64,000 nt of DNA from Gemmatimonadales bacterium. GTDB lineage: Bacteria > Gemmatimonadota > Gemmatimonadetes > Gemmatimonadales > GWC2-71-9. The position numbers and the translations under genes were made by a program. Below, one piece after another: positions 1-46,986 of this stretch (positions are counted from its first letter, which is position 1; each line of letters begins with the position of its first letter). The notes beneath the pieces were generated by a model. The model was not told where the DNA came from, did not search any database, and was given only the letters and a program-made list of their open reading frames with translations. The stretch lies in the NCBI GenBank assembly GCA_046260395.1, contig JBHEPH010000009.1, positions 5,520 through 69,519 of the forward strand. The letters are read 5' to 3'.

Positions 1-1261
1 CGACCATCGGGTACCGGTACAGTTGCGTAAAGCCGACGGCGCCGATGAATTCCCGTCCATCCGGTGAGATCACATAGTCGCCGAGCGAAGGCAGCACCCC
101 GGCCACCAGCGTGGCGGCGGTGTCGTGGAGGGCCAGTCGCATGGTGCGGTTCTCGCCGTCCGCAGCGGAGGAGGTGAAGAGCAGGGTGCTCCCGTCTGGC
201 GACAGGGCCAGTTGCCGCTGGAGCCCAGTCGCCACCCCGCCCAGTGTCGGCAGGGGAATCGAGAGCCGCGATGGCGGGCCCGCGTTCCCAGCCGGACGGG
301 GGCGGAGCCAACCCCACGCCGCGACCGCGGCCGTCAGGAGGAGGGCGACGCCCAGGAGGGCCGGTTGGGCTGATGGCCAGATGGCCCGATGACTGGCGGC
401 GGCGTTCCGGCCCCCTGACCCCCTCGCCCTTTGGCCTTCCCCACCCAGCGCCGCACTGAACTCCGCCGCCGAGGCAAACCGGTCGGCCGGCAGCTTGGCC
501 AGGGCGATCAGCACCGCGTCCTCCACCGCCGCCGGGATCGTCTTCCGCCGCATCGTCGGCGGCCGAGGATCCTCGGTGATCACCTGCGCCACGATCGCCT
601 GCGCCGTCGAGCCGGTGAAAGGTGGGTCGCCGGTCAGCATCTCGTAGGTCACACACCCCAAGGCGTACACATCGGAGCGGGCGGTGATGTCCCGTTCGCC
701 CATCGCCTGTTCAGGACTCATGTAGTGCGGCGTACCCAGGCTCATTCCCGTCTCGGTCATCCGGCTGCCGCCGGCGTCGCTGGCCGCCAGCGCGATGCCG
801 AAATCGGCCACCAGCGCCTGGCCGTCGTGGAGCAGGATGTTCTCGGGCTTGATGTCGCGGTGGATCACCCCATGCCGGTGGGCGTAGTCCAGGGCACTGG
901 CCACCTCGCGACTGATGCGGACGGCATCGTCAATCGAGAGTTGTTTCTCACGGGTGAGGCGGTCGCGCAGCGTCTCACCGGCCACGAAGGGCATGACGTA
1001 GAAGACGGTGCCGTCCACGGTGCCCGAATCGAAGAGCGGCAGGATGTGGGGATGCTGCAGGTTGGCGGTGGTCTTGATCTCGTGGAGGAACCGCTCGGCG
1101 CCGATGACCGCCGCGAGTTCGGGCCGCAGCACCTTGAGCGCCACCTGGCGGTCGTGCTTCAGGTCGTGGGCCAGATAGACCGTGGCCATGCCGCCAGCCC
1201 CAAGCTCGCGCTCGAGGCGGTAGCGGTCGGACAGGCTTGCCCTGAGGCGCGCAAGGCTCAT
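1..1261 (-). CDS. Receptor-type Ser/Thr protein kinase K1 (kinase-TM-TolB-like propeller), 3' end runs off the window
   Basis: Not in the ORF track because there is no stop in the window. Manual translation from ATG 1261 gives MSLARLRASLSDRYRLERELGAGGMATVYLAHDLKHDRQVALK...HRDIKPEN...DFG...GTPHYMSPEQ, then TM ALLGVALLLTAAVAAWGW, then LALSPDG/ISPDG repeats. Confidence 0.93.
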   Translation of the reverse strand, partial: MSLARLRASLSDRYRLERELGAGGMATVYLAHDLKHDRQVALKVLRPELAAVIGAERFLHEIKTTANLQHPHILPLFDSGTVDGTVFYVMPFVAGETLRDRLTREKQLSIDDAVRISREVASALDYAHRHGVIHRDIKPENILLHDGQALVADFGIALAASDAGGSRMTETGMSLGTPHYMSPEQAMGERDITARSDVYALGCVTYEMLTGDPPFTGSTAQAIVAQVITEDPRPPTMRRKTIPAAVEDAVLIALAKLPADRFASAAEFSAALGGEGQRARGSGGRNAAASHRAIWPSAQPALLGVALLLTAAVAAWGWLRPRPAGNAGPPSRLSIPLPTLGGVATGLQRQLALSPDGSTLLFTSSAADGENRTMRLALHDTAATLVAGVLPSLGDYVISPDGREFIGAVGFTQLYRYPMV

Positions 1262-1493
1262 GGCCTGGGTTCCAATTCGTGCAGCGCCGAAGGGGCGGTT
1301 GGGAGGCGAGCGGGGGTCTCGGGCAGAAATGGGCCTTGTCCGGGCGAGCCAGGAGCCTGATCAGGGAACACCGGAAGGTACCTCGCCAGCCGGTCGCGCG
1401 ACAACCAGGGCCCGCCGTTCTGGGCCCCGGCTAACATCGGTCATGGGCCAGCGTCTCCGCTGGAGCAGGCTTGATACCCCGGACCGGAGCGAC

Positions 1494-2787: not shown

Positions 2788-4833
2788 ATGCCGCGACTCC
2801 ATCGTTTGCTCCCGGGAGGGCTTGCCCTCGCGCTCATTGCGTCATCGGCGACCGTGCTGTCGGGCCAGGGCGTCCGCTTCACCCTCGCGCCATCCGCGGA
2901 ATACATCTGGTGGGACGACGCGCTCCCGATCAAGGATTACACCCTCATCGGCGCGCGCGCGGGCGCTGACTTCGGCCGGCTGATCGGCGTGACCGCCTGG
3001 TATCACCGTGGCACCGACATCCCGGTGATGCTGTCCACGACGAGCCTGCGCAGCTCCGGCGCGCCGTTCGCCAACACCACCACTGATGTCGAGACCTATG
3101 GCACCAATCTCGAGTTCAAGCTCGGCGCCGGTCGCATCGTGCCGTTTGTCCACGGTGGTGCCGGCGTGATCCGGTTCCGACCGGCAGGGGCTCCGCACAG
3201 CGAGCAGGTGAACTACCGCTATGGCGGCGGGATCCAGTACGACGTGGCGCGCAACATCCGTGCGACGGTCCTGGTGGAGGATTCCCGGTTCCGCCTGGCA
3301 CCGGAGGCGCTGTCGGCCCAAACCCCCGATGCCCGGAGTGAGAACCCCAACGCCACCCGCAGAAACTGGACCGCCTCCGCCGCCCTCGGCTTTGCCCTGG
3401 GCGGATCGCGGTACGGCCCGACGGCCGGCGCCGACCAGTGGTCGTTTGCGTCCATCCCGATCGAGCCGTTTGTCGGCCGGCTCGACTTTGACGATGACAA
3501 CCTGCGGCGGCAGACCGTCGCCGGCGTGCGGGCCGGGGTGGACTTTGGCAACTACGTGGGCCTGCGCGGCGTGTACTGGCAGGGCCGCAGCGACGGCCTC
3601 GGCACGCGCCAGCCGATCCAGGGCTACGGCGCCGAGGCACAGTTCAACCTGAACGCGAGCCTGGGCCTGGCGCCGTTCCTCGTCGCGGGTGTCCAGCGCA
3701 TTGACTACCAGGAGGACTATCGCGACGCCCTTGGTCTGATGCGCGAGGACGAGAACGCGCTCGTGGTCGGCGGTGGAGTCGGGGTGCGTCTCACCGACAA
3801 CTTCCGGCTCAACGTGGCGGCTCGTGACTACATCCGCAGCAGCCGCGACTTCGAGGATATTGCCAGCGTGGACAACCTGACGCACAACTGGATGCTGAGC
3901 GCCGGATTGGCCTTCAACCTGGGTCGCTCGCGCGATCGCGCCGACGACGACACCCCGCAGGCACGGGAGCGGATGGTGGAGCGGGAGCGCGACGAGGCCG
4001 ACCGGGAGCCGCGGGACGCGGCGATGCCGCGGATGCGTCGCGGCGAGGCGATGGACACCATGCGCGGACGGATCATCATGCTGCCGGTGCCTGAATCCGG
4101 CGAGTTGTATGTCCGGTATGGCCAGGCCTCCACCAGCCTGATCGAGCGCCTCTCCCAGGGGGACAGCCTGTTGGGGCGCCAGACGGCCACCCTGTCGGAT
4201 GCCGACATTGACCGGATCGTCCGCCGGCTCTCCGACCACATTGACCGCATCCTTGAGCAGCGCCTCCAGCGGATGCAGATGCCGCCGGCACAGCAGCAGC
4301 GCACCCCGGTGCAGCCGCCACCGCCCCCCGCTCCAGCGGCCGCCGCGACGCCGCGGGCACCCGCGCCAGGGGCCGCCACGCCGCCGCCGCAGGTCCACAC
4401 GCCCGCCGATACCGGTCGCAGGTTTGATGGGGTGGCCGCGTATGTCGCCGGGTTCGATGCGCTGGTGCTCGGCGTGCAACTGGATGCCGGTTCCGTCTTC
4501 GGCCTGGAGGCGCTGCGGTTCGTGCCAGAGTTTGCCGTCGGCCTGGCGGGCGACAAGTCGGTGCTCTTCGCGGCCGGCGCAGAGTATCGCTTTGGGATGC
4601 TGCAGGTGAGTGAATCCGTCCGGTTGCGGCCCCACGCCCGGTTGAGCCTGGGGCTGCTGGCTGCCGGTGGCGACACCGATTCGCAGTTCGGGCCGAACTT
4701 CGCCTACGGCGTCACCTTCGCGCCCAGGGACGGCACCGCTATGGACCGCAAGCCGCGCCTGTTCGTGGAACACCAGGGGATCAGCTTCTTCGACCAGAAC
4801 CGGTTGGCGGGCGGGCTGCGCTGGACGTTCTGA
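2788..4833 (+). CDS. Outer-membrane beta-barrel protein with multiple (probably three) small barrel domains and a Pro-rich linker
   Basis: Signal peptide. Amphipathic strands such as PFVHGGAGV..YGGGIQY and PFLVAGV..GGGVGV..LSAGLAF. Pro/Ala linker and C-terminal GGLRWTF (terminal Phe). Confidence 0.75.
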   Translation: MPRLHRLLPGGLALALIASSATVLSGQGVRFTLAPSAEYIWWDDALPIKDYTLIGARAGADFGRLIGVTAWYHRGTDIPVMLSTTSLRSSGAPFANTTTDVETYGTNLEFKLGAGRIVPFVHGGAGVIRFRPAGAPHSEQVNYRYGGGIQYDVARNIRATVLVEDSRFRLAPEALSAQTPDARSENPNATRRNWTASAALGFALGGSRYGPTAGADQWSFASIPIEPFVGRLDFDDDNLRRQTVAGVRAGVDFGNYVGLRGVYWQGRSDGLGTRQPIQGYGAEAQFNLNASLGLAPFLVAGVQRIDYQEDYRDALGLMREDENALVVGGGVGVRLTDNFRLNVAARDYIRSSRDFEDIASVDNLTHNWMLSAGLAFNLGRSRDRADDDTPQARERMVERERDEADREPRDAAMPRMRRGEAMDTMRGRIIMLPVPESGELYVRYGQASTSLIERLSQGDSLLGRQTATLSDADIDRIVRRLSDHIDRILEQRLQRMQMPPAQQQRTPVQPPPPPAPAAAATPRAPAPGAATPPPQVHTPADTGRRFDGVAAYVAGFDALVLGVQLDAGSVFGLEALRFVPEFAVGLAGDKSVLFAAGAEYRFGMLQVSESVRLRPHARLSLGLLAAGGDTDSQFGPNFAYGVTFAPRDGTAMDRKPRLFVEHQGISFFDQNRLAGGLRWTF

Positions 4834-4843
4834 ACCCTCCCAT

Positions 4844-4863
4844 CCGGCGGCGCCAGCCGCCGG
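4844..4863. terminator. GC-rich hairpin between convergent genes (possible terminator)
   Basis: ccggcggc-gcca-gccgccgg, an 8-bp stem with no U-tract. Confidence 0.3.
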
Positions 4864-4911
4864 TCAGGCCCTCGTCCCGGGAGGGCGCTCCTCGTGGCGC
4901 GGGGGGGCTGC

Positions 4912-7587
4912 TTATCGGGGCACGCTCCGCCGCAACTCCTCGAAGAAGTTCTCGACCACGATCAGGCGGTCCATCCGATCAGGGCCCGGGAAGCGGACCA
5001 TCACGAACCGCTGGTCGTCCGGCGCAATGGCATACTGCTGATGGGCGGCGCTGGTCAGGTACCGGGGCAGCGGAAAGAGCGCCTTCCGCTCCCCGGGTAC
5101 AAAGGGGGGGCCGGTCCTGACCGCCATCACCATCTGCTCGGCGGGGGAGCCAGTGGTGCGGTAGAACAACTCTCGTCCGGAGTGCGCCCAGACCGGTTCC
5201 TGGCCGCCCTGCGCTGAGATCTGCCAACGGCCGTCGCCGGTATTCGGAAACGGGCGGACATACACCTCGGAGGTGCCCGATTCGTCGGAGACGTAGGCAA
5301 GCCAGCGGCCGTCGGGTGACAACGCCGGCGAGGTCTCGTAGGCGGGAGTCGCGATGAGCACGATCGACGAGTCCGTCCCCAGTCGGCGGGCATAGAGATC
5401 TGCCTCACCCACGAACAACCCGGTGCGGTAGACCAGCCACACCCCGTCGCGGGAGAAGGTCACTTCATCGACCGGACGTTCAACGTCGAGCAGGAGCGAC
5501 GCCGGCCGGCTGCCATCCGCGGGCTGCTGGTAGAGATCGCGATTGTCGGCGCGTTCAGACGCGAAGGCAACCGATCGGCCCGCCGGCAACCACGCGGGCC
5601 TCACATTGTTCCTGCCTTCGGTGGTGAGCTTCGATAACGGCCCCTGACCAAGTTCCTTAATCCAGATGTGGGACACGAGTTCGCGAATGCTTACCGCCAG
5701 CCGGAGGCCGTCAGGCGACAAGGCCGGGTCTGCCACCAGGCCCGTCCATTCGGGCGCGACCGGCGTGGCCGATCCGTCCCGACCCACCCACACCACCTCC
5801 TGCGTTCCCCCTTTTCCCACACCACCCGCTGCATACCAGAGGGATCCGGTGGCCGACACGGTCAGATCCACGGCCCCGCCCCCGAAGCGGACCCCAACAC
5901 CCTGTGCCAACGCGACTGGATTGCCGGTGAGTTCCATCCGGTCCTGGTCGAACGGCACGCCCATGAGCGTCCCATCCGCCGTGGCATACACGAGGTGGCC
6001 GGATCCGGCATAGCGGGCAAATATCCCGCGGACGAGGGCGCGGTGCCTTCCGGTGGCCACGTCGAGCACCGCGATCTCGTCGGTTTCCCCGCCCATGGCC
6101 CCAGGACCGCCGCGACTGACGGTGACGAGCACCCCCTTCCCGTTGGGAAGGGCGTCGGGCCACGCGTGCTGCAGCTCGGCCCCCGTCGAGTCCACCTGGC
6201 CGATCGATTCCGCCGGGCCGCCGATCTCGCGGACGCGCATCAGGGGGCCGACACCGAGCTGATCGTAGTAGATGAAGCCGTCATACCCCCAGGAAATGCC
6301 CGGTGCCCCGACGGCGGAGTCGGTGATGGAGACCGGAGCACCACCAGCCAGGGACACCACCCTGATCGTTCCATTGGAGGCCCGGTCCATGAAGGCGATC
6401 CGGGTACCGTCCGGGGAGAAGGCCGGGTTGATGGCGCCGTCGGTGCCGGGCACGGCCGTCGCATCGAGCTGGTCGCGCGAGCGCACGAAGAGCCGCGTGC
6501 TCCGTTCCGAGTCTCCGACGTACACGAGCCGCGATCCATCGGGTGAGATCGCGAGCCGCGACCAGGGGGTGCCGGCCAGCCCCTGGCCCGGGGCCAGCTC
6601 GACGTGATAGCGGGCTACCGGTTGCACGGGCGTGGGGCGCCTGATAGCCCAGAGCAGCGCGGCCGCCAACAGGAGCGCAGCGACCAGCGCCGGGACTGCG
6701 GCGCGGTGCCGCCAGCCACCAGCCGGGCCCACGTGACCCTCGCTCGGCACGCCCCCGGCGCGGAATAGTGGATTCGCCAGCGCCTCGGCAAAGGCCCGGG
6801 CGGTCTCGAACCGGTCGGCCGGCAGCCGTTCCACCGCCTTGGCCACTGCGGCCGCCACGTTTGGCGGGACGGATTTCCGCATTTTCGTGACCGGTGCCGC
6901 CTCCTCCGTCACGATCTTCATGATGATCTGTTGGGCCGAGGCCCCGGTGTGCGGCGGGTTGCCGGTCAGCATCTCGTACAGCACGCTGCCCAACGAATAG
7001 ATGTCCGAGCGCGCCGAGATCTCCTTTTCGGCGGTGGCCTGCTCCGGTGACATGTAATGCGGGGTCCCGAGCGACAGGCCGGTTTCGGTCATCCGCCCAC
7101 CGGCGGCGGCGCTCAGGGCCAGCGCGATGCCGAAGTCGGCGACCATCGGGCGGCCCTCGTGGAGCAGGATGTTCTCGGGCTTGATGTCGCGGTGGATCAC
7201 ACCCTGGCGGTGGGCGTAGTCGAGGGCGTCCGCCACCGCGACGGTGATCTTGACCGCCTCATCAATGCCGAGCTGGGTCTCACGGTCCAGCTTCGATCGC
7301 AGCGTCTCGCCCTGGATATAGGGCATGACGTAATAGAGGAACCCGTCGGCGGTCCCCGAATCAAAGAGAGGGAGAATGTGCGGATGCTGCAGTGCCGCCG
7401 TGGTGGTGATCTCCTGCACGAACCGCTCGGCGCCGAGCACGGCGGCGAGTTCGGGCTTCAAGACTTTCACCGCCACCCTGCGCTTGTGCTTGAGGTCCTC
7501 GGCCAGATACACCGTGGCCATGCCGCCCTGGCCGAGCTCGCGCTCGATGCGGTAGCGGTCGGCGAGGGCCTCGTGAAGTCGTGTCAT
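4912..7587 (-). CDS. Receptor-type Ser/Thr protein kinase K2 (kinase-TM-TolB/PD40 propeller)
   Basis: GQGGMATVY, VAVK, HRDIKPEN, DFG and GTPHYMSPEQ motifs, a TM helix and many SPDG repeats. Confidence 0.96.
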   Translation of the reverse strand: MTRLHEALADRYRIERELGQGGMATVYLAEDLKHKRRVAVKVLKPELAAVLGAERFVQEITTTAALQHPHILPLFDSGTADGFLYYVMPYIQGETLRSKLDRETQLGIDEAVKITVAVADALDYAHRQGVIHRDIKPENILLHEGRPMVADFGIALALSAAAGGRMTETGLSLGTPHYMSPEQATAEKEISARSDIYSLGSVLYEMLTGNPPHTGASAQQIIMKIVTEEAAPVTKMRKSVPPNVAAAVAKAVERLPADRFETARAFAEALANPLFRAGGVPSEGHVGPAGGWRHRAAVPALVAALLLAAALLWAIRRPTPVQPVARYHVELAPGQGLAGTPWSRLAISPDGSRLVYVGDSERSTRLFVRSRDQLDATAVPGTDGAINPAFSPDGTRIAFMDRASNGTIRVVSLAGGAPVSITDSAVGAPGISWGYDGFIYYDQLGVGPLMRVREIGGPAESIGQVDSTGAELQHAWPDALPNGKGVLVTVSRGGPGAMGGETDEIAVLDVATGRHRALVRGIFARYAGSGHLVYATADGTLMGVPFDQDRMELTGNPVALAQGVGVRFGGGAVDLTVSATGSLWYAAGGVGKGGTQEVVWVGRDGSATPVAPEWTGLVADPALSPDGLRLAVSIRELVSHIWIKELGQGPLSKLTTEGRNNVRPAWLPAGRSVAFASERADNRDLYQQPADGSRPASLLLDVERPVDEVTFSRDGVWLVYRTGLFVGEADLYARRLGTDSSIVLIATPAYETSPALSPDGRWLAYVSDESGTSEVYVRPFPNTGDGRWQISAQGGQEPVWAHSGRELFYRTTGSPAEQMVMAVRTGPPFVPGERKALFPLPRYLTSAAHQQYAIAPDDQRFVMVRFPGPDRMDRLIVVENFFEELRRSVPR

Positions 7588-7595
7588 CGGGGCAG

Positions 7596-8357
7596 CTACT
7601 CGGCCCGACGCGCGTCGAGGCGGAGCGCCTCCAACTCGCGGCGCAGCGGGGCCCAGTACGCCCGATCCTCGGCCATGATCGCGGCCTGTTCCGCGGCGAG
7701 CGCCGCCTCAACATCCTGCCCGCGCAGCAGCGCCTGCACCGCCGGGCGCAACGACCGCTCGGCGGCGTCCGGACAGCGGGCCACGAGTTCCGCGAGGAAG
7801 GCCGGCGAGCGGAGCTCCGCCAGCCAGAACGACACCTGGGCCTCGGTGATGTCGCCATCGCGGGCGGCGGCGTACGAGGCGTCCACCAGGCGCCGGAGCA
7901 TCGGCCAATCCTTGTCGCGTTGGGTCTTCTTGGCCGCCACGAGGTCTTCCAGCGCCAGGACCTCGACCAGCACCTCCTCACCGCCCTCCGGATCTGGAAG
8001 GGCGATGGTGGTGCGGCGTTCCCAGAGCACGGGGAAGGGATCCACGCCGCGGAGCCGGCTCATGATGTCCACCCGCAACGGCGCCGCCGTGTCGTCCGGA
8101 ATGCGGAAATGCACCGCATGCCCGCGCTCGAGGTATTGCACCTCAAATGGTGGCACGGCGATCACGGTCGCGTGGAGCGCATCCAGGGCGGCGATGAGCG
8201 CGGGGAGCGCCGGCGGCGTGGCCAGCACCGCCAGGTCCAGGTCGCGGCTATACTCGGCTGCGCCGTACAACACGCACGCCTGTCCCCCCATCAACAGGGC
8301 GCGCGCGTCGCTCCTCCGGATCGTAGAAAGGACTCGCAGGATCTGGGTCGGGATCAC
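7596..8357 (-). CDS. Nucleotidyltransferase (AbiEii/DUF6036-like, pol-beta superfamily), NTase-1
   Basis: MGGQA...SRDLDL (GG..DxD) and C-terminal DLVAAKKTQRDKD motif. Confidence 0.8.
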   Translation of the reverse strand: MIPTQILRVLSTIRRSDARALLMGGQACVLYGAAEYSRDLDLAVLATPPALPALIAALDALHATVIAVPPFEVQYLERGHAVHFRIPDDTAAPLRVDIMSRLRGVDPFPVLWERRTTIALPDPEGGEEVLVEVLALEDLVAAKKTQRDKDWPMLRRLVDASYAAARDGDITEAQVSFWLAELRSPAFLAELVARCPDAAERSLRPAVQALLRGQDVEAALAAEQAAIMAEDRAYWAPLRRELEALRLDARRAE

Positions 8358-8508
8358 TGGTCCCCCCGAGCAGGTGATGCCACGCGGCCAGCCGGACGGA
8401 TTCGGCCCATCGCTGTTGCGGTGTCAGGCGCATCCAGGCGGCGGCTTCCTCGCCGTAGAGCTCGTCGAGGGTGACCCGCGGCCAGGAGGGGTCGAGGCGG
8501 ACCGTCAT
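8248..8508 (-). CDS. Small partner protein of NTase-1 (putative antitoxin)
   Basis: 86 aa, LTPQQRWAES motif. TATCTT -10 box 5 nt before the ATG. Overlaps the NTase-1 start by 110 nt. Confidence 0.65.
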   Translation of the reverse strand: MTVRLDPSWPRVTLDELYGEEAAAWMRLTPQQRWAESVRLAAWHHLLGGTSDPDPDPASPFYDPEERRARPVDGGTGVRVVRRSRV

Positions 8509-8593
8509 GCCGGAAGATAGTCGCACCCCCGAGGCGGAGCGGGATCTCGATCAATGAGGCCTCTCAGGGATTCCGCAAGCCAACACCATGCCG

Positions 8594-9496
8594 CTACGGG
8601 TCCCGGACGGCTCGCAGGAAAAGCTGGTCCCCCGGCACCCCGCGAAACTCGATCGCAGCGGCCCGTGCACCACTCTCGGCCACCTCGATGACCATCTCCT
8701 GCGCCTGCCCGACGACCTCACCGTCGTAGACCATCATCCACCCGTAGGTCTCCACCCCGCGCGGCACCAGGACCCAGGTCGTGCCGTCGAACCAGTCCGG
8801 CGCGTTGCCGCCCTCGACGCGCCAGGCCAGGATCCCGTCGGCCCAGCTGATCACGATGCGCTCAAACAGGAAGGGCCCCTTCCGGAACTCGGCTGGGACA
8901 TCATAGGTGCCAACCAGCGGCCGAGCCACCTGCTCGGCCACCTGCAGATTGATCTCCCCGGCACTCAGCCGCAGCTCGAAGTCCACCGCCTTGTCGGCCC
9001 AGGCCATCTGCACCCGGGAACGCCAGCCGCGGATTTCGTTGATGGACCAGGTCAGTGTCTCCACCGGCTCGATGGTCCTGGCCGTCAGGCGAAAGTGATA
9101 TTGCTCGGCGGTAGAATCGGGGTGGGCAGTATGAAAGAGCCCGGCCCTCGGGTCGAGGATCAGGGACCACTGGTCATCGGCGCGAGGTACCATCCAGACC
9201 GAGTACCGACCGGCCGGCACCGGGGTGCCGTCAATCCGGAAGTCGCGGTCCACTCGCAACACCGTGGCCATGTTGGCGCCCGGGGTCCAGTTCTTTCCCC
9301 AGGGGAGCTGGGTGCCGTACATCACCCGCCCCCGCAGGCTGGGCCGCGATCCGGTAATGCCGATCGTGTCGCCATCCACGATCTGGGTCACGGCAAAGTT
9401 TTCGCTGGCCCGCAGTTGCGCCATGGCCGTGACCGGGACCGCCGCGACCACGGCACCGACGAGGAGAACACTCGACCACCACTCAGTACCGCGCAT
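8594..9496 (-). CDS. DUF2911-family secreted protein with C-terminal extension
   Basis: Signal peptide. SRPSLRGR..LPWGKNWTPGAN..VPAGRYSVW matches the DUF2911 pattern. Confidence 0.8.
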   Translation of the reverse strand: MRGTEWWSSVLLVGAVVAAVPVTAMAQLRASENFAVTQIVDGDTIGITGSRPSLRGRVMYGTQLPWGKNWTPGANMATVLRVDRDFRIDGTPVPAGRYSVWMVPRADDQWSLILDPRAGLFHTAHPDSTAEQYHFRLTARTIEPVETLTWSINEIRGWRSRVQMAWADKAVDFELRLSAGEINLQVAEQVARPLVGTYDVPAEFRKGPFLFERIVISWADGILAWRVEGGNAPDWFDGTTWVLVPRGVETYGWMMVYDGEVVGQAQEMVIEVAESGARAAAIEFRGVPGDQLFLRAVRDP

Positions 9497-9914
9497 CCAC
9501 AGCCTCCCGGATCTGGGCCAGGGTGCGTCCCCGACCGTGCAGTCGTACGACGAACGAGCCGAGCCCGATGCAGATCGGGCACCACTTGCTCATGGAGTTG
9601 TCACCCTCGAAGCAGGTGAGCAGCGAGTAGAACCCCGGCAGCTCGGCGCAGCCACAGCTGCAGCGGATGCCGTCAATGATGTGCGGGACTTTGCGCACCG
9701 CATCGAAGAGCGCGATGAGTTCCTCGTCGCCACCGAGCTGGTCGGCCTTCAGCACCTTGTCGGCGGTGTAGTTGGGGCGCGGCTCGGGGTGCTTGGTGTG
9801 CCAGCGGGCGGCGCCCACCATACCCCGCAGCGGAGGCGGCAGGAGGCTGGCACCCGCGGCCGTGGCCAGCAGCGTGAGCAGGGCCCGTCGGGTGGTGCGG
9901 GGAACAGGGTGCAC
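9483..9914 (-). CDS. PCYCGC-motif-like Cys-rich protein with Tat signal
   Basis: TRRALL twin-arginine signal and RCSCGC...SLLTCF...CPIC. Confidence 0.75.
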   Translation of the reverse strand: MHPVPRTTRRALLTLLATAAGASLLPPPLRGMVGAARWHTKHPEPRPNYTADKVLKADQLGGDEELIALFDAVRKVPHIIDGIRCSCGCAELPGFYSLLTCFEGDNSMSKWCPICIGLGSFVVRLHGRGRTLAQIREAVDARY

Positions 9915-9983
9915 GATAGCAAGCTCCCGGAGGGGGTGGATTCAATGATAGTCGCGTCGCGGGGGGCTGGCCCGCCCTGCCAG

Positions 9984-12650: not shown

Positions 12651-12713
12651 GGCTTGCCCCGGTGTCGTGGGAACTAGCCGAGTGGACGGCGGTGAGGCGT
12701 TCGAGGACGGCGG

Positions 12714-15388: not shown

Positions 15389-15426
15389 GGCAGATACCCT
15401 GATCTGGATGGCCCGAGGGGGCCGCG
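15345..15426. repeat. Direct repeat copy 1 (K4 leader and first codons)
   Basis: 75/82 identical to 16994..17075 by manual alignment. Confidence 0.92.
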
Positions 15427-15439
15427 GTGAGGCACTCGT

Positions 15440-16221: not shown

Positions 16222-16303
16222 GGGTTCGAATCTATCGTCCCCCGACGGGTTCGGCCAGCCGAGACGCACGCTCGCGCCGCGGTGCCGAGGCGCTCGATGG
16301 TGG

Positions 16304-16935: not shown

Positions 16936-16941
16936 GGTTTC

Positions 16942-17075: not shown

Positions 17076-17094
17076 CCCAGGCGCGATGGGAGCG

Positions 17095-31816: not shown

Positions 31817-32244
31817 CAGGCTAGCGGGTGCCGCCACCGCAGCGACGGAAACCGCGCGTAGTCGCGATCGGTGGTCACGAACTCACACCCCTGCTCGATG
31901 GCCAGGCCCGCCAGCCAGGCGTCGGGGACCAGGTTGCCCTTTGCGCCCGCTTCCCGGCACAGCTTCGTGAAAATCTCCCAGTGTCGCGACCCGGGTGCCA
32001 CCGGAACGGCATTGGGTCGGCTGCGAAACGCCTCGACAAAGGCCAGCGCGGCCTCGATGGGCGCGGGCGGGTGGAACACCCGCGGGTGGGTCACGATCCG
32101 CAGAAAGCCGCTCAGGATCTGATCGGACACCGCATACGCTTCGTCTGATGAGACCAATGCCTCCAACCAGGTGCGATGCTCGGCATGCCCGGTGACATCC
32201 TCCCGAAAGGCGTATACCAGCACATTCACGTCAACGAGGCGCAT
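31816..32244 (-). CDS. vapC: VapC PIN-domain toxin (mycobacterial-like)
   Basis: LVDVNVLVYA, FLRIVTHPR, GNLVPDAWLA and TTDRDYARF motifs. Confidence 0.93.
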   Translation of the reverse strand: MRLVDVNVLVYAFREDVTGHAEHRTWLEALVSSDEAYAVSDQILSGFLRIVTHPRVFHPPAPIEAALAFVEAFRSRPNAVPVAPGSRHWEIFTKLCREAGAKGNLVPDAWLAGLAIEQGCEFVTTDRDYARFPSLRWRHPLA

Positions 32245-32536
32245 CGCCGGCGTCCATCAGGTCCAGGAGGCCGGCGGTGTCGTCCAGATCCACGCCGGGT
32301 TGCAGCCCCTGCCCCGCGAAGGTGGGAAGCGGCTGCACCACCACCCCTGGCGGTTCGGCCCGTCGCGTCTGTGACTCGAGAGCCGCCAGCCCCCTGCGCA
32401 GGACATCCGACTTGGTGGCCTCCAGCCGTTCGGCCAGCCGCTCGAGCCGCTCGCGGTCGGCGGGATCGAGGTAGACCTGGACTGGTTCCGCAACCCGCTT
32501 CGGTGGTGGGTTCCGCCGCTCATGATTATATGTCAT
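32231..32536 (-). CDS. Ribbon-helix-helix (CopG-like) antitoxin
   Basis: VQVYLD..RLERLA..TKSDVLRRGL and C-terminal GLQPGVDLDD. Overlaps vapC. Confidence 0.85.
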   Translation of the reverse strand: MTYNHERRNPPPKRVAEPVQVYLDPADRERLERLAERLEATKSDVLRRGLAALESQTRRAEPPGVVVQPLPTFAGQGLQPGVDLDDTAGLLDLMDAGDAPR

Positions 32537-41096: not shown

Positions 41097-41138
41097 GGGA
41101 GCATACGGCCTGCCGCGGCGCTTGTAAACCCCGATGGA
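41097..41138 (-). promoter_or_regulatory. Duplicated promoter-like element, copy 1 (TTTACA-17-TATGCT)
   Basis: 38/42 identical to 47695..47736. Confidence 0.75.
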
Positions 41139-41701: not shown

Positions 41702-44380
41702 TCACCGGCCTGGAGCCTTGAGCTGTTGCCGAAGCTCCCGGAACCAGTTGAGCGTGATGAGGAAGCGCGCCGTGGCGGGATCGCCCTGGTCGGTCGAGGC
41801 GTCACTCGCGAAAATCGGAACGACAACCACGAACCGGGTGCCGTCGGGGTGCAGGTCCCAGTTGCCAATGCCGTCAATGTCCCCGATATACATCACCTCG
41901 GGTGTGCCGAAACGTCCCTCGGGCGCTCGGGTGACTCGGGCGCGGTAGATCGTGTCGATGCGGGCGTCCCCGCCCGCGTGTGACCACCAGAGGAAACCGC
42001 CGTCACGCGACCAGCGCGGCGAGGCGCTCTGGCCAAGGGTGATTCGCCATTTGTTCTCCGGCACCGGAAATTCGCGCACGAAGATCTCCGGGACCCCCCG
42101 TTCGGAGGATACCAACGCCGCCAGCCGGCCGTTGGTCGAGATCTGAGCATCAGACTCGCTCCAGGGAGCGTTCAGGTAGGGCCGCGGCGGTGCCTGGCCC
42201 GTGGGGTCCCACATCAGTAGATCAATGTTGTCCTGCTCACGATGGTTCAGCAGGATCAGGTCATCCCGCGGCCACGACGCCGGCCACTGGTTCCCTCCCA
42301 TCACCAACAGCTCGGTGGCCGGCCCGCTGCCGTCGGCCGGGACCACCCAGAGGTCCTCGCGGCTGTCGGGAGAGAGTCGGTTGAACACCAACCGACTCCC
42401 GTCGGGCGACCAGGCCGGGTCGTCATTGTCCCCCTCGGGGGTGAGCTCGAGGATGGTGCCGGTCACGATGTCCACCGTGAAGATCGCGCTCTGACCATTG
42501 CGGCCGTCCACCGGCATCTCATAGGCAATGCGCCGCCCATCCGGGGCGAAGCGCGGGGCCGCGCGACGCCCCGGAGGCAGGCGCAGCGTATCCGCTGCGG
42601 CCCCAGGCGTCACCACAACCATGAGGTTGGTGGCGCTGGTGGCGAAGGCCGCGGCCGGCGCGTCGTGGAGCACCAGCGTGCCGTTTCGAGCCACCGAGTA
42701 GCCGCGGGCCGACAGTGTGGCGCCCACTCGTGAAGCAAGTACCACGGGCGCGCCGATCGGCCTCGCGGCCTCGCGGTCAAATCGCACCGCCGCGAGCGCT
42801 CCCGACTCGCTGGTGAAGAGCAGTTTGTCCCCGTCCACCAACGAGACGTACCCCCCGCGCAAGCCGAGGCGCTGCACTGTGTCGGCCACGAAGTCGCGAA
42901 AGGAAAGGTCCCAGTTCTCGCTGAAAAGGACACCGGAGCCATCAGGCAGCAGGAAGGGCATCCGGCCCGTCACCCCCGCCAGCAGTTCCGGCGTCCCGCC
43001 CCCAGCTCCGATTCGGAAGGTTCCTTGGGGCGAACTGAAGACGATCCATTCATCGGTTCCCCAGTGCGGGGAGGAGGGGCTGATCGCCCCGCGGGGCACC
43101 AGGGTGATGGCACCACCCCCCGAGACCGACACCTTCACCAGCTCACTCGTGGTGTTGCGCCGGAAGACGATCCACTCCCCGTCAGGCGAGAACGAGGGGG
43201 TGGTGCCGTTTTCCGTGCCCGGAATCTTGGCGAACGCCACGTCGCCCTCGAGACGCCGGAGGTAGATCGCCTGTTCGCCGTTGACCTGGCCGGCCACGGC
43301 CAGCAGACTCCCATCCGGCGAGACCACGACGTGCCGGGGGGACGGGTCCACGGCGCCGAGGTTCACGTCGAGCCGTACCAGCGGGGGCTCGGGCGCGCGG
43401 CGCAGCCATCCCGCGATGGCCGCGGTCGCCAGCACCGCGGCCACACCCCAGGGCAGCCAGGTCCGCCGGACGTCCGCGGCAGTCATCCCCCCCGCCACGG
43501 TGGCGTACGCCGTCGCCCCGTAGGTGAAACCCGGACTGGCCAGCGCCTCCGCGAAGGCGCGGGCGGTGTCGAACCGATCGGCCGGCAGCTTCTCCAGCGC
43601 CTGCGCCAGTGCCGCGGCGACGTGCGGCGGCACGTTGCGGCGCAGCTCCGTCACCGGCCGCGCGCGGTCGGTGATGATCTTCATGATCACCGCCTGCGCG
43701 GATCCGCCGGTGTGGGGCGGCTCGCCGGCGAGCATCTCAAAGAGCACGGTGGCGAGCGAGTAGACATCGGAGCGGGCGCTGATGTCCTTGTCGGCGGTGG
43801 CCTGCTCGGGGCTCATGTAGTGCGGGGTGCCCAAGCTGAGCCCTGTCTCGGTCATCCGGCCGCCCGCCGCGGCACTCACCGCCAGGGCAATCCCGAAGTC
43901 CATCACCATCGCCCGCCCGTCGTGCAGCAGGATGTTCTCGGGTTTGATGTCGCGGTGGATGACGCCGTGGCGGTGGGCATAGTCGAGCGCATCGGCCACT
44001 TCCCGCGTGATCCGCACCGCCTCGGCCACACCGAGCTGGGTCTGCCGGTTGAGCCGGTCGCGGATCGTCTCGCCCTCGATGAAGGGCATGACGTAGAACA
44101 TGTAGGGGCCGGAGTGGTCCGGCCCGTACACGGAGCCCGAGTCGAACAGCGGCAGGATGTGCGGGTGGCTCAGCGCCGCCGTGGTCTTGATCTCCTGCAC
44201 AAACCGCTCGGCGCCGAGCACCGCCGCGAGGTCCGGCTTGAGCACCTTGATGGCCACCTGGCGGTCATGCTTGATGTCTTCGGCGAGGTACACCGTAGCC
44301 ATCCCGCCCTGGCCGAGCTCGCGCTCGAGGCGGTAGCGGTCGGAAAGGGCGGCGGTGAGGCGGTCCAGTGGGGCACTCAC
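41702..44380 (-). CDS. Receptor-type Ser/Thr protein kinase K7
   Basis: Hanks motifs, TM LPWGVAAVLATAAIAGWL and propeller repeats. GTGA overlap with K8. Confidence 0.95.
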   Translation of the reverse strand: MSAPLDRLTAALSDRYRLERELGQGGMATVYLAEDIKHDRQVAIKVLKPDLAAVLGAERFVQEIKTTAALSHPHILPLFDSGSVYGPDHSGPYMFYVMPFIEGETIRDRLNRQTQLGVAEAVRITREVADALDYAHRHGVIHRDIKPENILLHDGRAMVMDFGIALAVSAAAGGRMTETGLSLGTPHYMSPEQATADKDISARSDVYSLATVLFEMLAGEPPHTGGSAQAVIMKIITDRARPVTELRRNVPPHVAAALAQALEKLPADRFDTARAFAEALASPGFTYGATAYATVAGGMTAADVRRTWLPWGVAAVLATAAIAGWLRRAPEPPLVRLDVNLGAVDPSPRHVVVSPDGSLLAVAGQVNGEQAIYLRRLEGDVAFAKIPGTENGTTPSFSPDGEWIVFRRNTTSELVKVSVSGGGAITLVPRGAISPSSPHWGTDEWIVFSSPQGTFRIGAGGGTPELLAGVTGRMPFLLPDGSGVLFSENWDLSFRDFVADTVQRLGLRGGYVSLVDGDKLLFTSESGALAAVRFDREAARPIGAPVVLASRVGATLSARGYSVARNGTLVLHDAPAAAFATSATNLMVVVTPGAAADTLRLPPGRRAAPRFAPDGRRIAYEMPVDGRNGQSAIFTVDIVTGTILELTPEGDNDDPAWSPDGSRLVFNRLSPDSREDLWVVPADGSGPATELLVMGGNQWPASWPRDDLILLNHREQDNIDLLMWDPTGQAPPRPYLNAPWSESDAQISTNGRLAALVSSERGVPEIFVREFPVPENKWRITLGQSASPRWSRDGGFLWWSHAGGDARIDTIYRARVTRAPEGRFGTPEVMYIGDIDGIGNWDLHPDGTRFVVVVPIFASDASTDQGDPATARFLITLNWFRELRQQLKAPGR

Positions 44381-46986
44381 TTGTTGGCCTCAGCCACCGC
44401 TCGCTTCATCCGCTCTACCCAGTTGGGGATGACCCGCAGATAGGGGGCTGGCCTCTGCGGCGCCCCTTGGACATAGACCACCCGCCCCTCGGGTGTCAGC
44501 GCAAACGATTGTCCCGGCGTGCTGACTAATCGGGGCGCATCGAACCAGTGCGCGGCGGTGGCGCCGGGCGGGTCTCCGCCTGCACGCACCAGAACGCGGT
44601 GGAAGGCGGTCGGACTGCCGTATTCGGGGTACACGAACTCACTCGGGGAAAGCCACTGCGCGCCTTCCATCGAGCCCGGGGCGACCTGGGTACGACGGCC
44701 GGTACGGGGGAGCGCCTCCACCCACAACTCACTGATAGTGCTCGAATTGTAGGCGACCCATCGCCCATCCGGCGAGACCGTAACGAACGAGGCGTTACTC
44801 ACCAGTGTATCAACGGTCAGCGGCCGTTCCTTGACGTGCAGCGCCATGGCAATCCCAGTCCCCCACTCCACCCCGACCAGACGTCCATCGGCCAGCCAGC
44901 GGAAGCCCTCGAACGTGCCATTGGACCATGGCAGGGCCTGGGGCAGCCCCACCGCGTCGGGAGAGCTCAGGAAGAGCGAACCCCGGGTCTGAATCAGGAT
45001 CTCGTCGCCGCCGGGACTCCAGACTGGCTGGCTGATCTCCAATTCCCGGGACACGACCTGGTGCCTGCCGGTCGGCAGGTCATAGATCCGCAGTTGCTGG
45101 CCGTCGAGTACCTCGACGACGGCAGCCAATCGCCTGCCATCTGGGCTCAAGCTGAAGCGGAGAAATGCCTCCTGCCCGAACGGCAGTGTGTCCAGCGACT
45201 GGTCGGTGGCGCTGACCAAATGGCCGATGGCTTTATCGCTCCCCATCGCGTAGACCAGTGTCCCTGATGCGGCAATGTCATAGGTGCCCGCTCCGGTATA
45301 CGCCTGCCGGTCAAGCCCGGATAGCATCCGAACCGGCCGCCCGACGCGCCCGGACACCAGATCAACCGGGGCGGCAAAGAGGTCGCCGCCCACCGACAGG
45401 TAGGTCAGGTAGCGACCCTCAATCAGCCGAAAATGCGACCCGACGACCCGCGCCGAATCGGGGCCCAAGGTCCAGAGTGGCAGAAAGGTTGTACTGTCTG
45501 CGGGATCCACCCGGTACGCGGTCTTGACGCCACCACCACCGCAGAGCAGCAGCTCTGAGTCAGGCAACCCTGACGGGAGGATGCAGTATGTAATGCGTCG
45601 GCTGACAGCAGATCCGCCCCCCGGATCGAGCCATCGAGCCAGGATCCCGTCGCCCTCCACCAGCAGGAGCCGGCCATCGGGCAACCAGTCCAGGCTGGCC
45701 GAGGCCCGTCCCTGGGCGAGGACTGTTCCGCGCCCCCCACCCACCGGCATCACCTCCACAGTCCAACTCGCGTCTCCCCCTCGCAGGAACGCAACCTGGG
45801 TTCCATCGAGTGAAATCCTGGGGTGGCGGGCGTTCTCCGACCCAGCGATCCGGCGTGAGGTGGCGTCCAGCAGACTGCGGTACCAGAGGCCCCCACCTTC
45901 CTCGTTGACCACCTCATACACCACGAAGTCTCCGGCAGGGGACACGGAAAACGGCGAGTACCTGTCTCCCCGCATCTCCGCGCCGTCCGGGAGACCAACG
46001 TCATACTCGGACGGCCCGATGCCATCGGCAGGCTTGAGCAGCGCCCACGTCACCGCGGCCACGGCAACGATGGCCACTATCGCAAAGAGCGGTCCAGGCA
46101 CACCGGTAGTGGCTGAGGGCCCCGCGGCTGACGCCATCCTCCTTCTGGTGAAGGTGGGGTTGGTCAACGACTCGGCGAACTCCCGCGCCGTCCCGAACCG
46201 ATCCGCCGGCAACTTCTCCAGCGCCTGCGCCACCGCCGCCGCCACGTGCTCCGGCACCGCCTTCCGCAGCTTCGAAACCGGCGCCGCCTCCTCCGTCACG
46301 ATCTTCATGATGATCTGCTGCGCCGTGGCCCCGGTGTGCGGCGGGTTCCCCGTCAGCATCTCGTACAGCACACAGCCCAGCGAGTAGATATCCGAGCGTC
46401 CGGTAATCTCCCGCTCCGCCGTGGCCTGCTCCGGGCTCATGTAGTGCGGCGTGCCGAGACTGAGGCCGGTCTCGGTCATCCGGCCCCCCGCCGCCGCACT
46501 CACCGCCAGGGCGATGCCGAAGTCCGCCACCGTCGCCCGGCCGTCGTGCAGCAGGATGTTCTCCGGCTTGATGTCGCGGTGGATCACCCCGTGCCGGTGG
46601 GCATAGTCCAGCGCGTCCGCCACCTCGCGAGCAATGCGGACCGCCTCATCAATGCCGAGTTGTGTTTCGCGGTCCAGTTTGCTCCGCAGCGTCTCGCCCT
46701 GGACGAACGGCATGACATAGTAGAGGAAGCCGTCGGCCGCGCCCGAATCGAACAGCGGCAGGATGTGGGGGTGCTGGAGGGCCGCGGTGGTCTTGATCTC
46801 AGTGATGAAACGCTCGGCGCCCAGGACCGCCGCCAGGTCCGGCTTGAGGACCTTGATCGCCACCCGACGGTCATGCTTGAGGTCCTGGGCCAGGTACACG
46901 GTGGCCATGCCGCCCGCACCGAGCTCGCGCTCGAGGCGGTAGCCTGGACTGAGGGCGCTCACGAGGCGGGCCGGCAGATCCGTCAT
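44377..46986 (-). CDS. Receptor-type Ser/Thr protein kinase K8
   Basis: Start MTDLPARLVSALSPGYRLERELG. Hanks motifs, TM helix and a divergent propeller. Confidence 0.95.
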   Translation of the reverse strand: MTDLPARLVSALSPGYRLERELGAGGMATVYLAQDLKHDRRVAIKVLKPDLAAVLGAERFITEIKTTAALQHPHILPLFDSGAADGFLYYVMPFVQGETLRSKLDRETQLGIDEAVRIAREVADALDYAHRHGVIHRDIKPENILLHDGRATVADFGIALAVSAAAGGRMTETGLSLGTPHYMSPEQATAEREITGRSDIYSLGCVLYEMLTGNPPHTGATAQQIIMKIVTEEAAPVSKLRKAVPEHVAAAVAQALEKLPADRFGTAREFAESLTNPTFTRRRMASAAGPSATTGVPGPLFAIVAIVAVAAVTWALLKPADGIGPSEYDVGLPDGAEMRGDRYSPFSVSPAGDFVVYEVVNEEGGGLWYRSLLDATSRRIAGSENARHPRISLDGTQVAFLRGGDASWTVEVMPVGGGRGTVLAQGRASASLDWLPDGRLLLVEGDGILARWLDPGGGSAVSRRITYCILPSGLPDSELLLCGGGGVKTAYRVDPADSTTFLPLWTLGPDSARVVGSHFRLIEGRYLTYLSVGGDLFAAPVDLVSGRVGRPVRMLSGLDRQAYTGAGTYDIAASGTLVYAMGSDKAIGHLVSATDQSLDTLPFGQEAFLRFSLSPDGRRLAAVVEVLDGQQLRIYDLPTGRHQVVSRELEISQPVWSPGGDEILIQTRGSLFLSSPDAVGLPQALPWSNGTFEGFRWLADGRLVGVEWGTGIAMALHVKERPLTVDTLVSNASFVTVSPDGRWVAYNSSTISELWVEALPRTGRRTQVAPGSMEGAQWLSPSEFVYPEYGSPTAFHRVLVRAGGDPPGATAAHWFDAPRLVSTPGQSFALTPEGRVVYVQGAPQRPAPYLRVIPNWVERMKRAVAEANK

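Follow-up and report, generated by a model that had tools for sequence, protein, structure and literature searches.

A co-directional array of receptor-like serine/threonine kinase paralogues with interspersed toxin-antitoxin modules in a Gemmatimonadales bacterium

Kinase genes of the array and their products

The window, the whole stretch of 64,000 nucleotides that was analysed, lies on contig C203 of a 213-contig assembly with 88.5% completeness (genome G000). The host, a member of the Gemmatimonadota, is described as soil-type. Eight co-oriented Hanks kinase genes (K1 to K8) lie on the minus strand of the window, together with a ninth 5' remnant; the original prediction had listed the same set, and profile search and repeat alignment confirmed each place. 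K1 (2-1261) comprises the N-terminal 420 aa, with the kinase domain (Pkinase 168.9 bits), the TM helix and the start of the ectodomain; it runs past the window start, and its complete ORF was located in the contig at C203:4135-6780. K2 (4912-7587, 891 aa) and K3 (9984-12650, 888 aa) have Pkinase and PD40 matches and are followed by K4 (12714-15388), K5 (17095-19794) and K6 (22566-25301). The start of K7 (41702-44380) and the stop of K8 (44377-46986) share 4 nt, and the array ends on this side with K8. The eight copies align in register, which makes the repeat family unmistakable and beyond chance. K4 is a single gene in which a one-base frameshift, at about 14849-14852, interrupts the GTPHYMSPEQ motif; this may reflect either a pseudogene or an assembly error. 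Its N-terminal part scores 124.6 bits for Pkinase, and its C-terminal part has PD40 and a partial Pkinase match of 31.1 bits vs the cut-off of 31.7. In this genome the family amounts to 21 genes over C203, C158 and C188 at an arbitrary limit of 59%, the next match being at 58% on C159.

About 20 ordinary genes interleave with the window kinases, among them genes for a beta-lactamase-fold protein, an M20 peptidase, an aminotransferase, DAO, a PQQ dehydrogenase, ThiC and an amidase. The ORF at 25990-29304 was rejected as a kinase and encodes a tricorn-type protease, and the plus-strand ORF at 20119-22797 was rejected as a shadow ORF. A scan of positions 4800-20000 for the sigma-70 consensus returned no promoters.

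Each array gene encodes a Hanks kinase, predicted to be cytoplasmic, that is joined through one predicted membrane helix to a double PD40 beta-propeller, which would lie in the periplasm. Pkinase (PF00069) is above its cut-off in 7 of the 10 long window ORFs, with 149-173 bits for K1, K2, K3, K5, K6, K7 and K8. The catalytic motifs are present in the alignment as VAVKVL, HRDIKPENILL, ADFGIA and GTPHYMSPEQ, which are taken to be the VAxK lysine, the HRD loop, DFG and the activation-loop GT/SPE. In a scan that reports the top segment of each protein, the most hydrophobic 19-mer of all full-length copies falls at about aa 297-343, with the kinase start as aa 1 (mean hydropathy 1.5-2.6), and PD40 repeats (29-102 bits) lie downstream of it. 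In K2 the kinase spans aa 1-270, the hydrophobic helix about aa 297-315 and the double beta-propeller ectodomain aa 321-891. The AlphaFold model of K2 has an all-beta ectodomain (pLDDT 91) whose fold matches include the tandem-propeller proteins LRP6 E1E2 and Aip1, TolB (target TM 0.48-0.50) and tricorn. The receptor-like architecture proposed earlier is therefore supported by profiles, hydropathy and the K2 model.

PknD of Mycobacterium tuberculosis resembles this predicted layout: its Hanks kinase is linked by one membrane helix to a beta-propeller sensor outside the cytoplasm. Unlike PknD, which has a single NHL-type propeller and is encoded by one gene, the genes described here have a double PD40 propeller and occur as more than 20 arrayed paralogues. 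The NCBIfam PknD model matches the kinase domain only (152 bits vs a cut-off of 839); these proteins are not PknD equivalogs.

Toxin-antitoxin modules and insertions at kinase starts

Five toxin-antitoxin (TA) or TA-like modules lie on the minus strand among the kinases, as originally predicted, and two of them are canonical type II pairs. The Phd-PIN pair (16304-16935) consists of Phd at 16690-16935 and PIN at 16304-16693 with a 4-nt overlap (PIN 58.5 bits, PhdYeFM 41.6 bits, TIGR01552), and its orthologues in the same-genus genome G001 are 88% and 81% identical in aa. The RHH-VapC pair (31816-32536; RHH 32231-32536, VapC 31816-32244) matches PIN, RHH_1 and TIGR00028 (140.8 bits), and its G001 orthologues are 85% and 81% identical. 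In the window this pair is upstream of the DAO oxidoreductase gene; in G001 some 70 nt separate its end (370330) from the start of the kinase gene downstream (370403). Another PIN toxin gene, with an adjacent upstream antitoxin gene, is found at C188 3440-4164.

The other three modules are TA-like and contain nucleotidyltransferase-fold genes. The gene at 7596-8357 ends 8 nt before the K2 start, shares a G-x-D-x-D motif with two other window genes and has a small ORF upstream, in frame from about 8507. It matches AbiEii at E = 0.0014, which is below the cut-off, and has no PADLOC or NCBIfam match. The module at 15440-16353 pairs a DUF6036 nucleotidyltransferase (15440-15961, E = 1e-5) with a small partner ORF within 15949-16353. 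The third (25276-25931) abuts the K6 start and consists of a gene at 25276-25809, assigned by motif alignment and matching no Pfam family, and a small upstream ORF at 25716-25931. AbiEii scores are 19.0 bits for the 7596-8357 gene and 20.6 bits for a C158 gene vs a cut-off of 22.5, and the partners match no AbiEi family and PADLOC gave no match; these two genes are thus filed only as putative nucleotidyltransferase-fold, TA-like genes. A further candidate at 47116-47565 was rejected as a TA module and is a lipoprotein-like ORF.

The nucleotidyltransferase-fold modules are directly upstream of K2, K4 and K6, and Phd-PIN is upstream of the DUF6036 pair. For a module that lies in the array, a place immediately before a kinase gene is within what chance would give (roughly p = 0.1, hand estimate). 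PIN/ParE toxins are enriched in the arrays of three genomes, with 4 of 14 inside the array in G000 (0.36 expected), 3 of 14 in G001 (0.33 expected) and 3 of 7 in the relative G015 (0.05 expected), although these counts are not independent, two pairs being orthologous between G000 and G001. The enrichment inside the arrays is about tenfold in three of the five genomes; the arrays of the other two, G013 (0 of 3) and G014 (0 of 5), have no PIN or ParE match. TA hot spots also occur outside the G001 array, at C1:3-6 kb and C1:106-107 kb.

The ninth kinase remnant (16983-17082, minus strand) consists of 17-18 kinase codons (MGIEAIGASLSDRYRL...) preceded by 45 nt in which a GC hairpin lies (17059-17072). 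Its profile score is 22.6 vs a control maximum of 15.1. The remnant and the region of the K4 start (15334-15433) are direct repeats with 87% identity, and the two bracket a 1.55-kb TA insert. Cassettes between two kinases have a direct repeat of the kinase 5' end on either side, and paralogous empty sites exist at C188 6912/6915 and C203 140/143. These empty sites show that the cassettes are insertions; TA cassettes, like other foreign genes, were inserted secondarily where kinase genes start. Repeat-bracketed cassettes between kinases are a new observation of this analysis.

Arrays in relatives and divergence of the kinase and ectodomain modules

The co-directional kinase array is typical of Gemmatimonadota and not peculiar to this genome. 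All 21 of the related genomes gave matches, and G001, a 10-contig assembly, has one contiguous 93-kb array with 25 plus-strand kinase-domain matches at 312171-405265, including 23 full-length copies of 755-995 aa. At least two kinases occur in 29 of the 35 Gemmatimonadota loci of at least 15 kb, all co-oriented in 24 of the 29, so the array organisation is not the unusual part that it was predicted to be. The gap is at most 12 nt at 71 of the 171 kinase-kinase junctions, and many array junctions are 4-nt stop/start overlaps. Comparison of the locus across relatives agreed with the predicted plasticity: between congeners the synteny of the array is not stable. Flanking genes of G000 and G001 are 74-95% identical and differ in order, and G001 has a match of at least 66% for only 6 of 17 ectodomains. 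The old, very divergent ectodomains and the differing repertoires of the congeners fit birth and death of copies.

Among 16 full-length genes (120 pairs), kinase-domain identity averages 73.7% in aa (range 59-96%), and ectodomain identity averages 24% (range 14-90%). The strong divergence of the propellers was thus correctly foreseen; the kinase domains are not near-identical as claimed, with a median nucleotide identity of 70%, and the longest exact run per pair has a median length of 26 nt and reaches 99 nt at most. The predicted incongruence of separate kinase and propeller trees was found in both directions by AU tests, for which clades were picked after inspection of the trees. Ectodomain clades were rejected on the kinase alignment (p = 0.001, 3e-8, 5e-7 and 0.03) apart from one (0.076), and kinase clades were rejected on the ectodomain alignment (p = 0.03 and 0.004).

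Comparison with G001 gives the same picture at the level of single genes. The kinase domain is non-orthologous in 4 of the 6 genes with a clear ectodomain orthologue, and K5 is the sole window copy in which kinase and ectodomain point to one G001 orthologue. C158_4250 and its G001 partner are 83% identical in the ectodomain and only 69% in the kinase domain (rank 13 of its kinase matches), and the kinase of the neighbouring gene matches at 96%. In windowed identity profiles the switch between kinase and ectodomain is sharp and falls at aa 256-285; in the genes with a non-orthologous kinase domain it was placed at aa 265-275, where the kinase domain ends. An amino-acid incompatibility test, implemented as a custom script, gave 0 of 2000 permutations for the kinase domain and 834 of 2000 for the ectodomain; within kinase group II it was marginal (98 of 2000), and third codon positions alone gave no signal (875 of 1000). 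These results support an exchange or conversion of the kinase module (roughly aa 1-270) among array members, such that its history is decoupled from that of the ectodomain. Since kinase synonymous divergence (median pS 0.46, lowest 0.24) is close to the between-species level (0.39-0.58), this recombination looks mostly old and not ongoing.

The proposal that recombination through the kinase DNA diversifies the receptor repertoire is thus borne out only in the decoupling of kinase and ectodomain; the kinase DNA is about 70% identical, exchange is mostly old and ectodomain mosaicism is absent. Recombination re-assorts or homogenises the kinase module and is not the source of the ectodomain diversity, in which no mosaic signal was seen. 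In one paralogous pair, C158:12643-15275 and the next kinase domain are 89% and 86.5% identical in nt to C188, forming an 'ectodomain plus next kinase' unit. None is apparent by eye between G000 and G001 neighbours.

Comparison with known systems and interpretation of the array

The array is a variant of known tandem kinase expansions. PMC11032199, which cites Perez et al. 2008, describes how membrane-bound Hanks Ser/Thr kinases with repeat domains in the periplasm have expanded in a lineage-specific way in Myxobacteria and Planctomycetota, credits species-specific kinase clades to duplication and/or recombination and notes that some duplicates adjoin. In line with the layout predicted here, the proteins described there join a cytoplasmic Pkinase through one membrane span to a repeat or propeller domain in the periplasm. 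Unlike those expansions, the present family has a double PD40 propeller instead of WD40 or TPR, has most copies in one co-directional array of 20-25 genes conserved across an order, and is characterized by domain-level exchange found through orthologue comparison. Literature searches returned no description for Gemmatimonadota. The lpl cluster of Staphylococcus aureus, according to Tsuru and Kobayashi 2008 (PMC2568036), also consists of paralogues in tandem. Each of its ORFs has a conserved stretch at which homologous recombination takes place, and phylogenies within the ORF are incongruent, as found here on either side of the conserved part. In lpl this stretch is central, whereas here it is the whole 5' kinase domain, and the lpl evolutionary unit of two adjacent ORFs has its counterpart only in the C158/C188 pair. 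Sedentary chromosomal integrons, as described in PMC13108822, resemble the array in having TA pairs interspersed and enriched in a long co-directional cassette array. However, the arrays of G000, G001 and G015 are without an integrase (no tyrosine recombinase PF00589 on C203, C158, C188, G001 C3:312-405 kb or G015 C4:485-512 kb), the window at 1-48000 has no inverted repeats of at least 40 nt and no attC-like repeats, and the cassettes are bracketed by host-gene 5' repeats. An integron-like cassette array was therefore rejected.

The window is best explained, with a probability of roughly 0.7, as one end of a large array of receptor Ser/Thr kinase paralogues that is co-directional and in part operon-like, in which kinase modules were exchanged and cassettes were inserted at gene starts. 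A purely vertical history of duplication and divergence, with a slow catalytic domain and a fast sensor domain, could account for the positive correlation of kinase and ectodomain identities (Spearman 0.53) and for the low kinase pN, but it is already contradicted by the AU rejections in both directions, by the sharp identity step and by the mosaic signal in the kinase domain. The normally slow kinase domain of C158_4250 is also more diverged from its orthologue than the ectodomain (pN 0.208 vs 0.098), and such a history is highly improbable. There is next to no likelihood that the repeated kinases are an assembly or binning artefact of collapsed or mixed strains. Contigs C158, C188, C203 and C102 of the 213 all break within kinase genes, and C158 and C188 have an 89% identical gene in common; nevertheless, eight distinct copies on one 64-kb contig, 23 full-length copies in a contiguous 93 kb of the 10-contig congener and arrays at 29 of the 35 long loci, which come from many assemblies, already contradict it for the array itself. 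C158 and C188 may be paralogous or allelic and could originate from co-binned strains.

The role of the TA genes bears on two further explanations. The original model held that the repertoire is actively diversified by recombination through kinase DNA and that TA addiction, which kills cells in which segments are lost, limits the collapse of the array. In its favour, deletions are likely given the direct repeats of kinase DNA, a comparable role is described for TA cassettes of chromosomal integrons (PMC13108822), toxins are enriched in three arrays, and two TA pairs have been kept at 81-88% aa in the arrays of both congeners despite differing neighbours. This model is nonetheless unlikely, given the two arrays without PIN/ParE toxins, the G001 hot spots elsewhere, the non-independent toxin counts, the low kinase DNA identity with no ectodomain mosaicism, and the bracketing of the cassettes by repeats that would permit clean loss. 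A defence island, in which the kinases sense phage or stress together with adjacent abortive-infection-like nucleotidyltransferases and TA toxins, would agree with the TA and AbiEii/DUF6036-like genes that adjoin kinase starts, several with 4-nt overlaps, and with a DUF4143/AAA_14 ATPase in the array of a relative. The K2 kinase domain also has sub-threshold NCBIfam matches to MAD6 (175 bits vs a cut-off of 460) and PglW (91 vs 990), but these are limited to that domain and far under the cut-off. Since PADLOC matched 0 of 9 small or unknown proteins, the periplasmic propellers suggest extracellular ligands and the intervening genes are mostly housekeeping, a defence island is very unlikely.

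Under the preferred reading of an exchanging receptor kinase array, the kinase modules would be exchanged between neighbouring copies by homologous recombination or gene conversion. The TA cassettes would be selfish passengers, building up in a region that is plastic and rich in repeats, and may be co-transcribed with the downstream kinase, and the bracketing direct repeats would permit their clean excision. The different propellers may bind different periplasmic ligands, and the homogenised kinase modules would feed similar cytoplasmic targets.

The kinase array and its relatives

The window (C203:5520-69519, 68% G+C) has eight receptor kinase genes, K1-K8, all on the minus strand, and the original prediction of a set of co-oriented genes with a common architecture is essentially right. 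In each, the encoded Pkinase domain (149-173 bits) has its VAxK, HRD, DFG and GTPxYMSPEQ motifs intact and is followed by a hydrophobic helix near residue 300 and a PD40-repeat part of about 570 aa. K1 is truncated at the window edge, and a one-base frameshift within GTPHYMSPEQ splits K4. The plus-strand reading frame at 20119-22797 was rejected as a shadow ORF. The ectodomain is predicted to be a double propeller, since the K2 ectodomain, modelled with AlphaFold from 49 aligned relatives, is all-beta (pLDDT 91.0, pTM 0.76) and matches tandem-propeller proteins (LRP6 E1E2, Aip1), TolB and tricorn in a fold search. The search returned generic propellers with a low whole-model TM (0.26-0.36); therefore, no particular ligand can be inferred.

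Queried by tblastn with the K2 kinase domain, the assembly (3.2 Mb, 213 contigs, 88.5% complete) yields 56 matches. All 22 matches of at least 59% identity fall on three contigs, with 11 on C203 (10 genes), seven genes within 18.4 kb of C158 and four genes on C188; the next best match (58%) is on C159. The copies of each contig share one strand. Four contigs end inside kinase genes, so kinase-rich regions of such genomes are systematically under-assembled. Over the 120 pairs formed by 16 full-length genes, identity averages 73.7% (59-96%) in the kinase domain and 24.2% (14-90%) in the ectodomain. The kinase domains had been described as near-identical, which is too strong because median DNA identity across the first 990 nt is 70% and the longest exact run between copies is short (median 26 nt, maximum 99 nt).

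Matches occur in all 21 related genomes searched. Among the named relatives, Gemmatimonadota assemblies are the closest. The congener G001 (10 contigs) has 25 plus-strand kinase-domain matches at C3:312171-405265, 23 of them genes of 755-995 aa. The genes between the window kinases have orthologues within this array in a changed order: ThiC (95%), an aminotransferase (82%), M20 (79%), a beta-lactamase-fold protein (76%), an amidase (74%), and the toxin-antitoxin (TA) proteins PIN (88%), Phd (81%), VapC (85%) and RHH (81%). Among the 35 loci retrieved with a length of 15 kb or more, 29 have at least two kinases, all co-oriented in 24 of the 29. Among 171 junctions of consecutive co-oriented kinases, the gap is at most 12 nt in 71, 13-40 nt in 12, 41-149 nt in 23 and longer in 64; ATGA or GTGA overlaps occur at many junctions in the present assembly. 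With arrays widespread in relatives and gene order changed, these comparisons indicate that the array is a lineage trait, loosely syntenic yet rearranged. Its organisation, first regarded as unusual, is thus the norm. No description of Gemmatimonadota kinase arrays was found in the literature searched. The nearest described cases are the tandem kinase expansions of Myxobacteria and Planctomycetota (PMC11032199) and, in S. aureus, the cluster of lpl paralogues (PMC2568036).

Several further PD40 genes and array members were observed. A tricorn-type protease, not a kinase, sits within the array at 25990-29304 on the minus strand (PD40, Tricorn_C1, PDZ_Tricorn, Peptidase_S41). By tblastn, its propellers are 25-28% identical to sequence of the G001 array, and one match, 325074-326378, falls in a kinase ectodomain; the protease and the sensor domains may share ancestry. 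Just past the array, 50145-55622 adds to this PD40-rich neighbourhood a BTAD-TPR protein (weak TolB_N match) and two PD40 proteins that lack a kinase, one of which has Big_2 domains. A 42-nt direct repeat (90% identical; 41097-41138 and 47695-47736) encloses an HbpS-like gene, K7, K8 and a lipoprotein gene. A second broken kinase lies on C158 (locus L094, 16289-18394) in two pieces in different frames; 17591-18394 is the kinase C-half with the membrane helix, truncated by the contig end, and 16289-17512 is the remaining ectodomain, with a C-terminus resembling those of K8 and C203_140. In another member of that locus (6951-9392) a non-propeller C-terminal part, labelled TPR-type by eye from the alignment, replaces the PD40 propellers. 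Its orthologue in G001 is 88% identical, and another TPR-type kinase is present in L066, a locus of another Gemmatimonadales assembly.

Separate histories of kinase domain and ectodomain

Maximum-likelihood trees of the kinase domain and ectodomain were built for 15 genes, leaving out four genes cut by contig ends, both K4 halves, the broken C158_17591 and the TPR-type C158_6951. The separate trees called for by the original prediction are incongruent, with AU rejections both ways. The kinase alignment rejects the ectodomain clades {K2,K5} (p = 0.001), the same pair with C158_4250 (p = 3e-8), this group once K3 is also added (p = 5e-7) and {C203_140,K8} (p = 0.03); it does not reject {K6,K7} (p = 0.076). 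Conversely, the ectodomain alignment rejects the kinase clade {C158_1629,C158_4250} (p = 0.03) and the five-gene kinase group I (p = 0.004). These clades were picked after the trees were seen; therefore, independent evidence was sought in G001.

A clear G001 counterpart (66-88%) exists for six of 17 ectodomains; for the remaining 11, identity is only 26-49%. The kinase domain finds its best match in the same G001 gene for two of the six (K5 and the TPR-type gene) and in a different gene for four. For C158_4250 the G001 partner is 83% identical in the ectodomain and 69% in the kinase domain, where it ranks 13; for K8 both values are 72% and the kinase rank is 12. The partners of C158_12667 and C188_6912 rank 6 and 5. 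In C158_4250 the kinase domain, normally the slow part, has diverged twice as far as the ectodomain (pN 0.208 vs 0.098), and it shares 96% identity with the kinase domain of the neighbouring C158_1629. Sliding windows place a step from about 100% to about 30% identity at residues 256-285, and orthologous ectodomain identity picks up directly after the membrane helix.

A pairwise-incompatibility permutation test on amino acids (own script) gives 0/2000 permutations for the kinase domain and 834/2000 for the ectodomain. The nucleotide test has no signal at third codon positions alone; its all-site version (0/1000) may be inflated by within-codon linkage, so the amino-acid version is preferred. 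The flanking-gene orthologues of the two species have pS of 0.32-0.58 (0.39-0.58 for six non-TA genes), and the kinase paralogues have a median of 0.46 with lowest values of 0.24-0.33. These values indicate that some kinase exchanges are younger than the species split and most are old. Recombination had been predicted and is right in kind, but its tempo and effect were overstated.

Cassettes behind kinase 5' remnants

Every cassette between two kinases has a short kinase 5' remnant ahead of it, and the 5' end of the downstream kinase is intact. This bracketing is a new observation. In the window, the remnant at 16983-17082 (17-18 codons and 45 nt upstream) is an 87% identical repeat of 15334-15433, and the two enclose a 1.55-kb Phd-PIN-partner-DUF6036 insert. 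A GC-rich hairpin (GGCCC-CCTC-GGGCC; 17059-17072 and 15410-15423, minus strand) sits in the 45-nt element that immediately precedes both the K4 start and the remnant. C188 has a remnant of about 17 codons ahead of Phd-PIN. C158 has a 9-codon remnant ahead of a ParE/RelE pair, where the paralogous C188 segment is an uninterrupted junction, and a 22-codon remnant ahead of HTH-DUF6036, for which the empty junction is C203:140/143. The G001 Phd-PIN orthologue also has a decayed remnant; therefore, the remnant-Phd-PIN unit is older than the species split.

A remnant profile was scanned over 56 inter-kinase gaps of 150-6000 nt, a scan that left out the 9-codon remnant (too short) and the HTH junction (upstream gene broken). 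Fifteen gaps score above every reverse-strand control: eight short remnants (11-18 columns), one of 28 columns and six full N-termini of broken or fused genes. In relatives, the genes behind short remnants encode an IS200-like transposase, a DUF4143/AAA_14 ATPase, a TPR protein, an ECF sigma factor and an S9 peptidase. L066:5800-6550 has a 28-codon remnant, an opposite-strand IS200-like Y1 transposase gene and then an intact kinase. In the congener's array (L012:4537-6840; C3:364537-366840), a degenerate kinase N-terminus of about 33 residues is followed in frame by an S9 prolyl oligopeptidase that has PD40 repeats; the remnant is either fused to the peptidase gene or just upstream of it. An integron was rejected, as the arrays of this genome, G001 and G015 have no tyrosine recombinase and the window has no long inverted repeats. 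A diversity-generating mechanism was also rejected, with no reverse transcriptase among the genes domain-scanned.

The window TA set consists of Phd-PIN, RHH-VapC and three nucleotidyltransferase-fold pairs. Elsewhere in the array contigs there are four further TA or TA-like modules: on C158, a small ORF (RHH-like by eye, with no Pfam family) with ParE/RelE and an HTH protein with a DUF6036 nucleotidyltransferase; on C188, Phd-PIN; and on C203 (2899-3959), a TacA/ParD-like ORF with a nucleotidyltransferase-like ORF. NCBIfam names only Phd and VapC, and PADLOC has no match for nine small or unknown proteins. AbiE membership was rejected (score below cut-off), as was a TA module at 47116-47565, a lipoprotein-like ORF. 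Genome-wide PIN and ParE toxins were counted inside and outside arrays, with array spans set by hand and two TA pairs orthologous between this genome and G001. The arrays hold 4/14 toxins here (0.36 expected, binomial P 4e-4), 3/14 in G001 (0.33, P 0.004), which has further TA clusters outside its array, and 3/7 in G015 (0.05, P 1e-5). Toxins are thus enriched within these three arrays; the arrays of G013 (0/3) and G014 (0/5) hold none. A genome search for DUF6036 gave too few matches for a usable count and missed the window's own copy. The proposed stabilisation of the array by TA modules is a possibility.

A possible self-shuffling receptor locus

The array might be a self-shuffling receptor locus, a reading to which we give about one chance in five. 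Attachment would rely on homology, with the first 10-30 codons, which are conserved among the arrayed kinases, as the site. Passengers, both TA cassettes and others (IS200-like transposase, ATPase, sigma factor), would enter and move within the array between two direct kinase 5' copies, either by Campbell-type integration of circles or by gene conversion with the two copies as arms, and no dedicated recombinase would be needed. Each TA cassette would set its own AT-rich promoter/operator ahead of the following kinase gene, the start of which overlaps the stop codon of the toxin. Between 4800 and 20000 of the window, scans give 0 sigma-70 promoter-like sites (1.4 expected) and 6 terminator-like sites (5.5 expected), among them the hairpin copy at 17059-17072. 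With no sigma-70-like sites, the idea of a TA-borne promoter therefore draws only on AT-rich palindromic stretches read by eye. Cassette movement together with exchange of kinase modules would make the locus self-shuffling and, if this reading is true, a bacterial counterpart of plant receptor-kinase and NLR clusters.

Gemmatimonadota are abundant soil bacteria, and to our knowledge almost none of their signalling biology has been described. With the bracketed inserts one can test whether cassettes move via homology to a host gene family and not by their own recombinase, and also, directly, whether TA pairs guard repeat arrays against collapse. Most of a receptor repertoire of 20-25 members is in one locus, where the sensor halves vary between sister species and the copies have exchanged a common kinase half. 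This makes the array a natural system well suited to studying how new environmental inputs come to be linked to a single output pathway in bacterial evolution.
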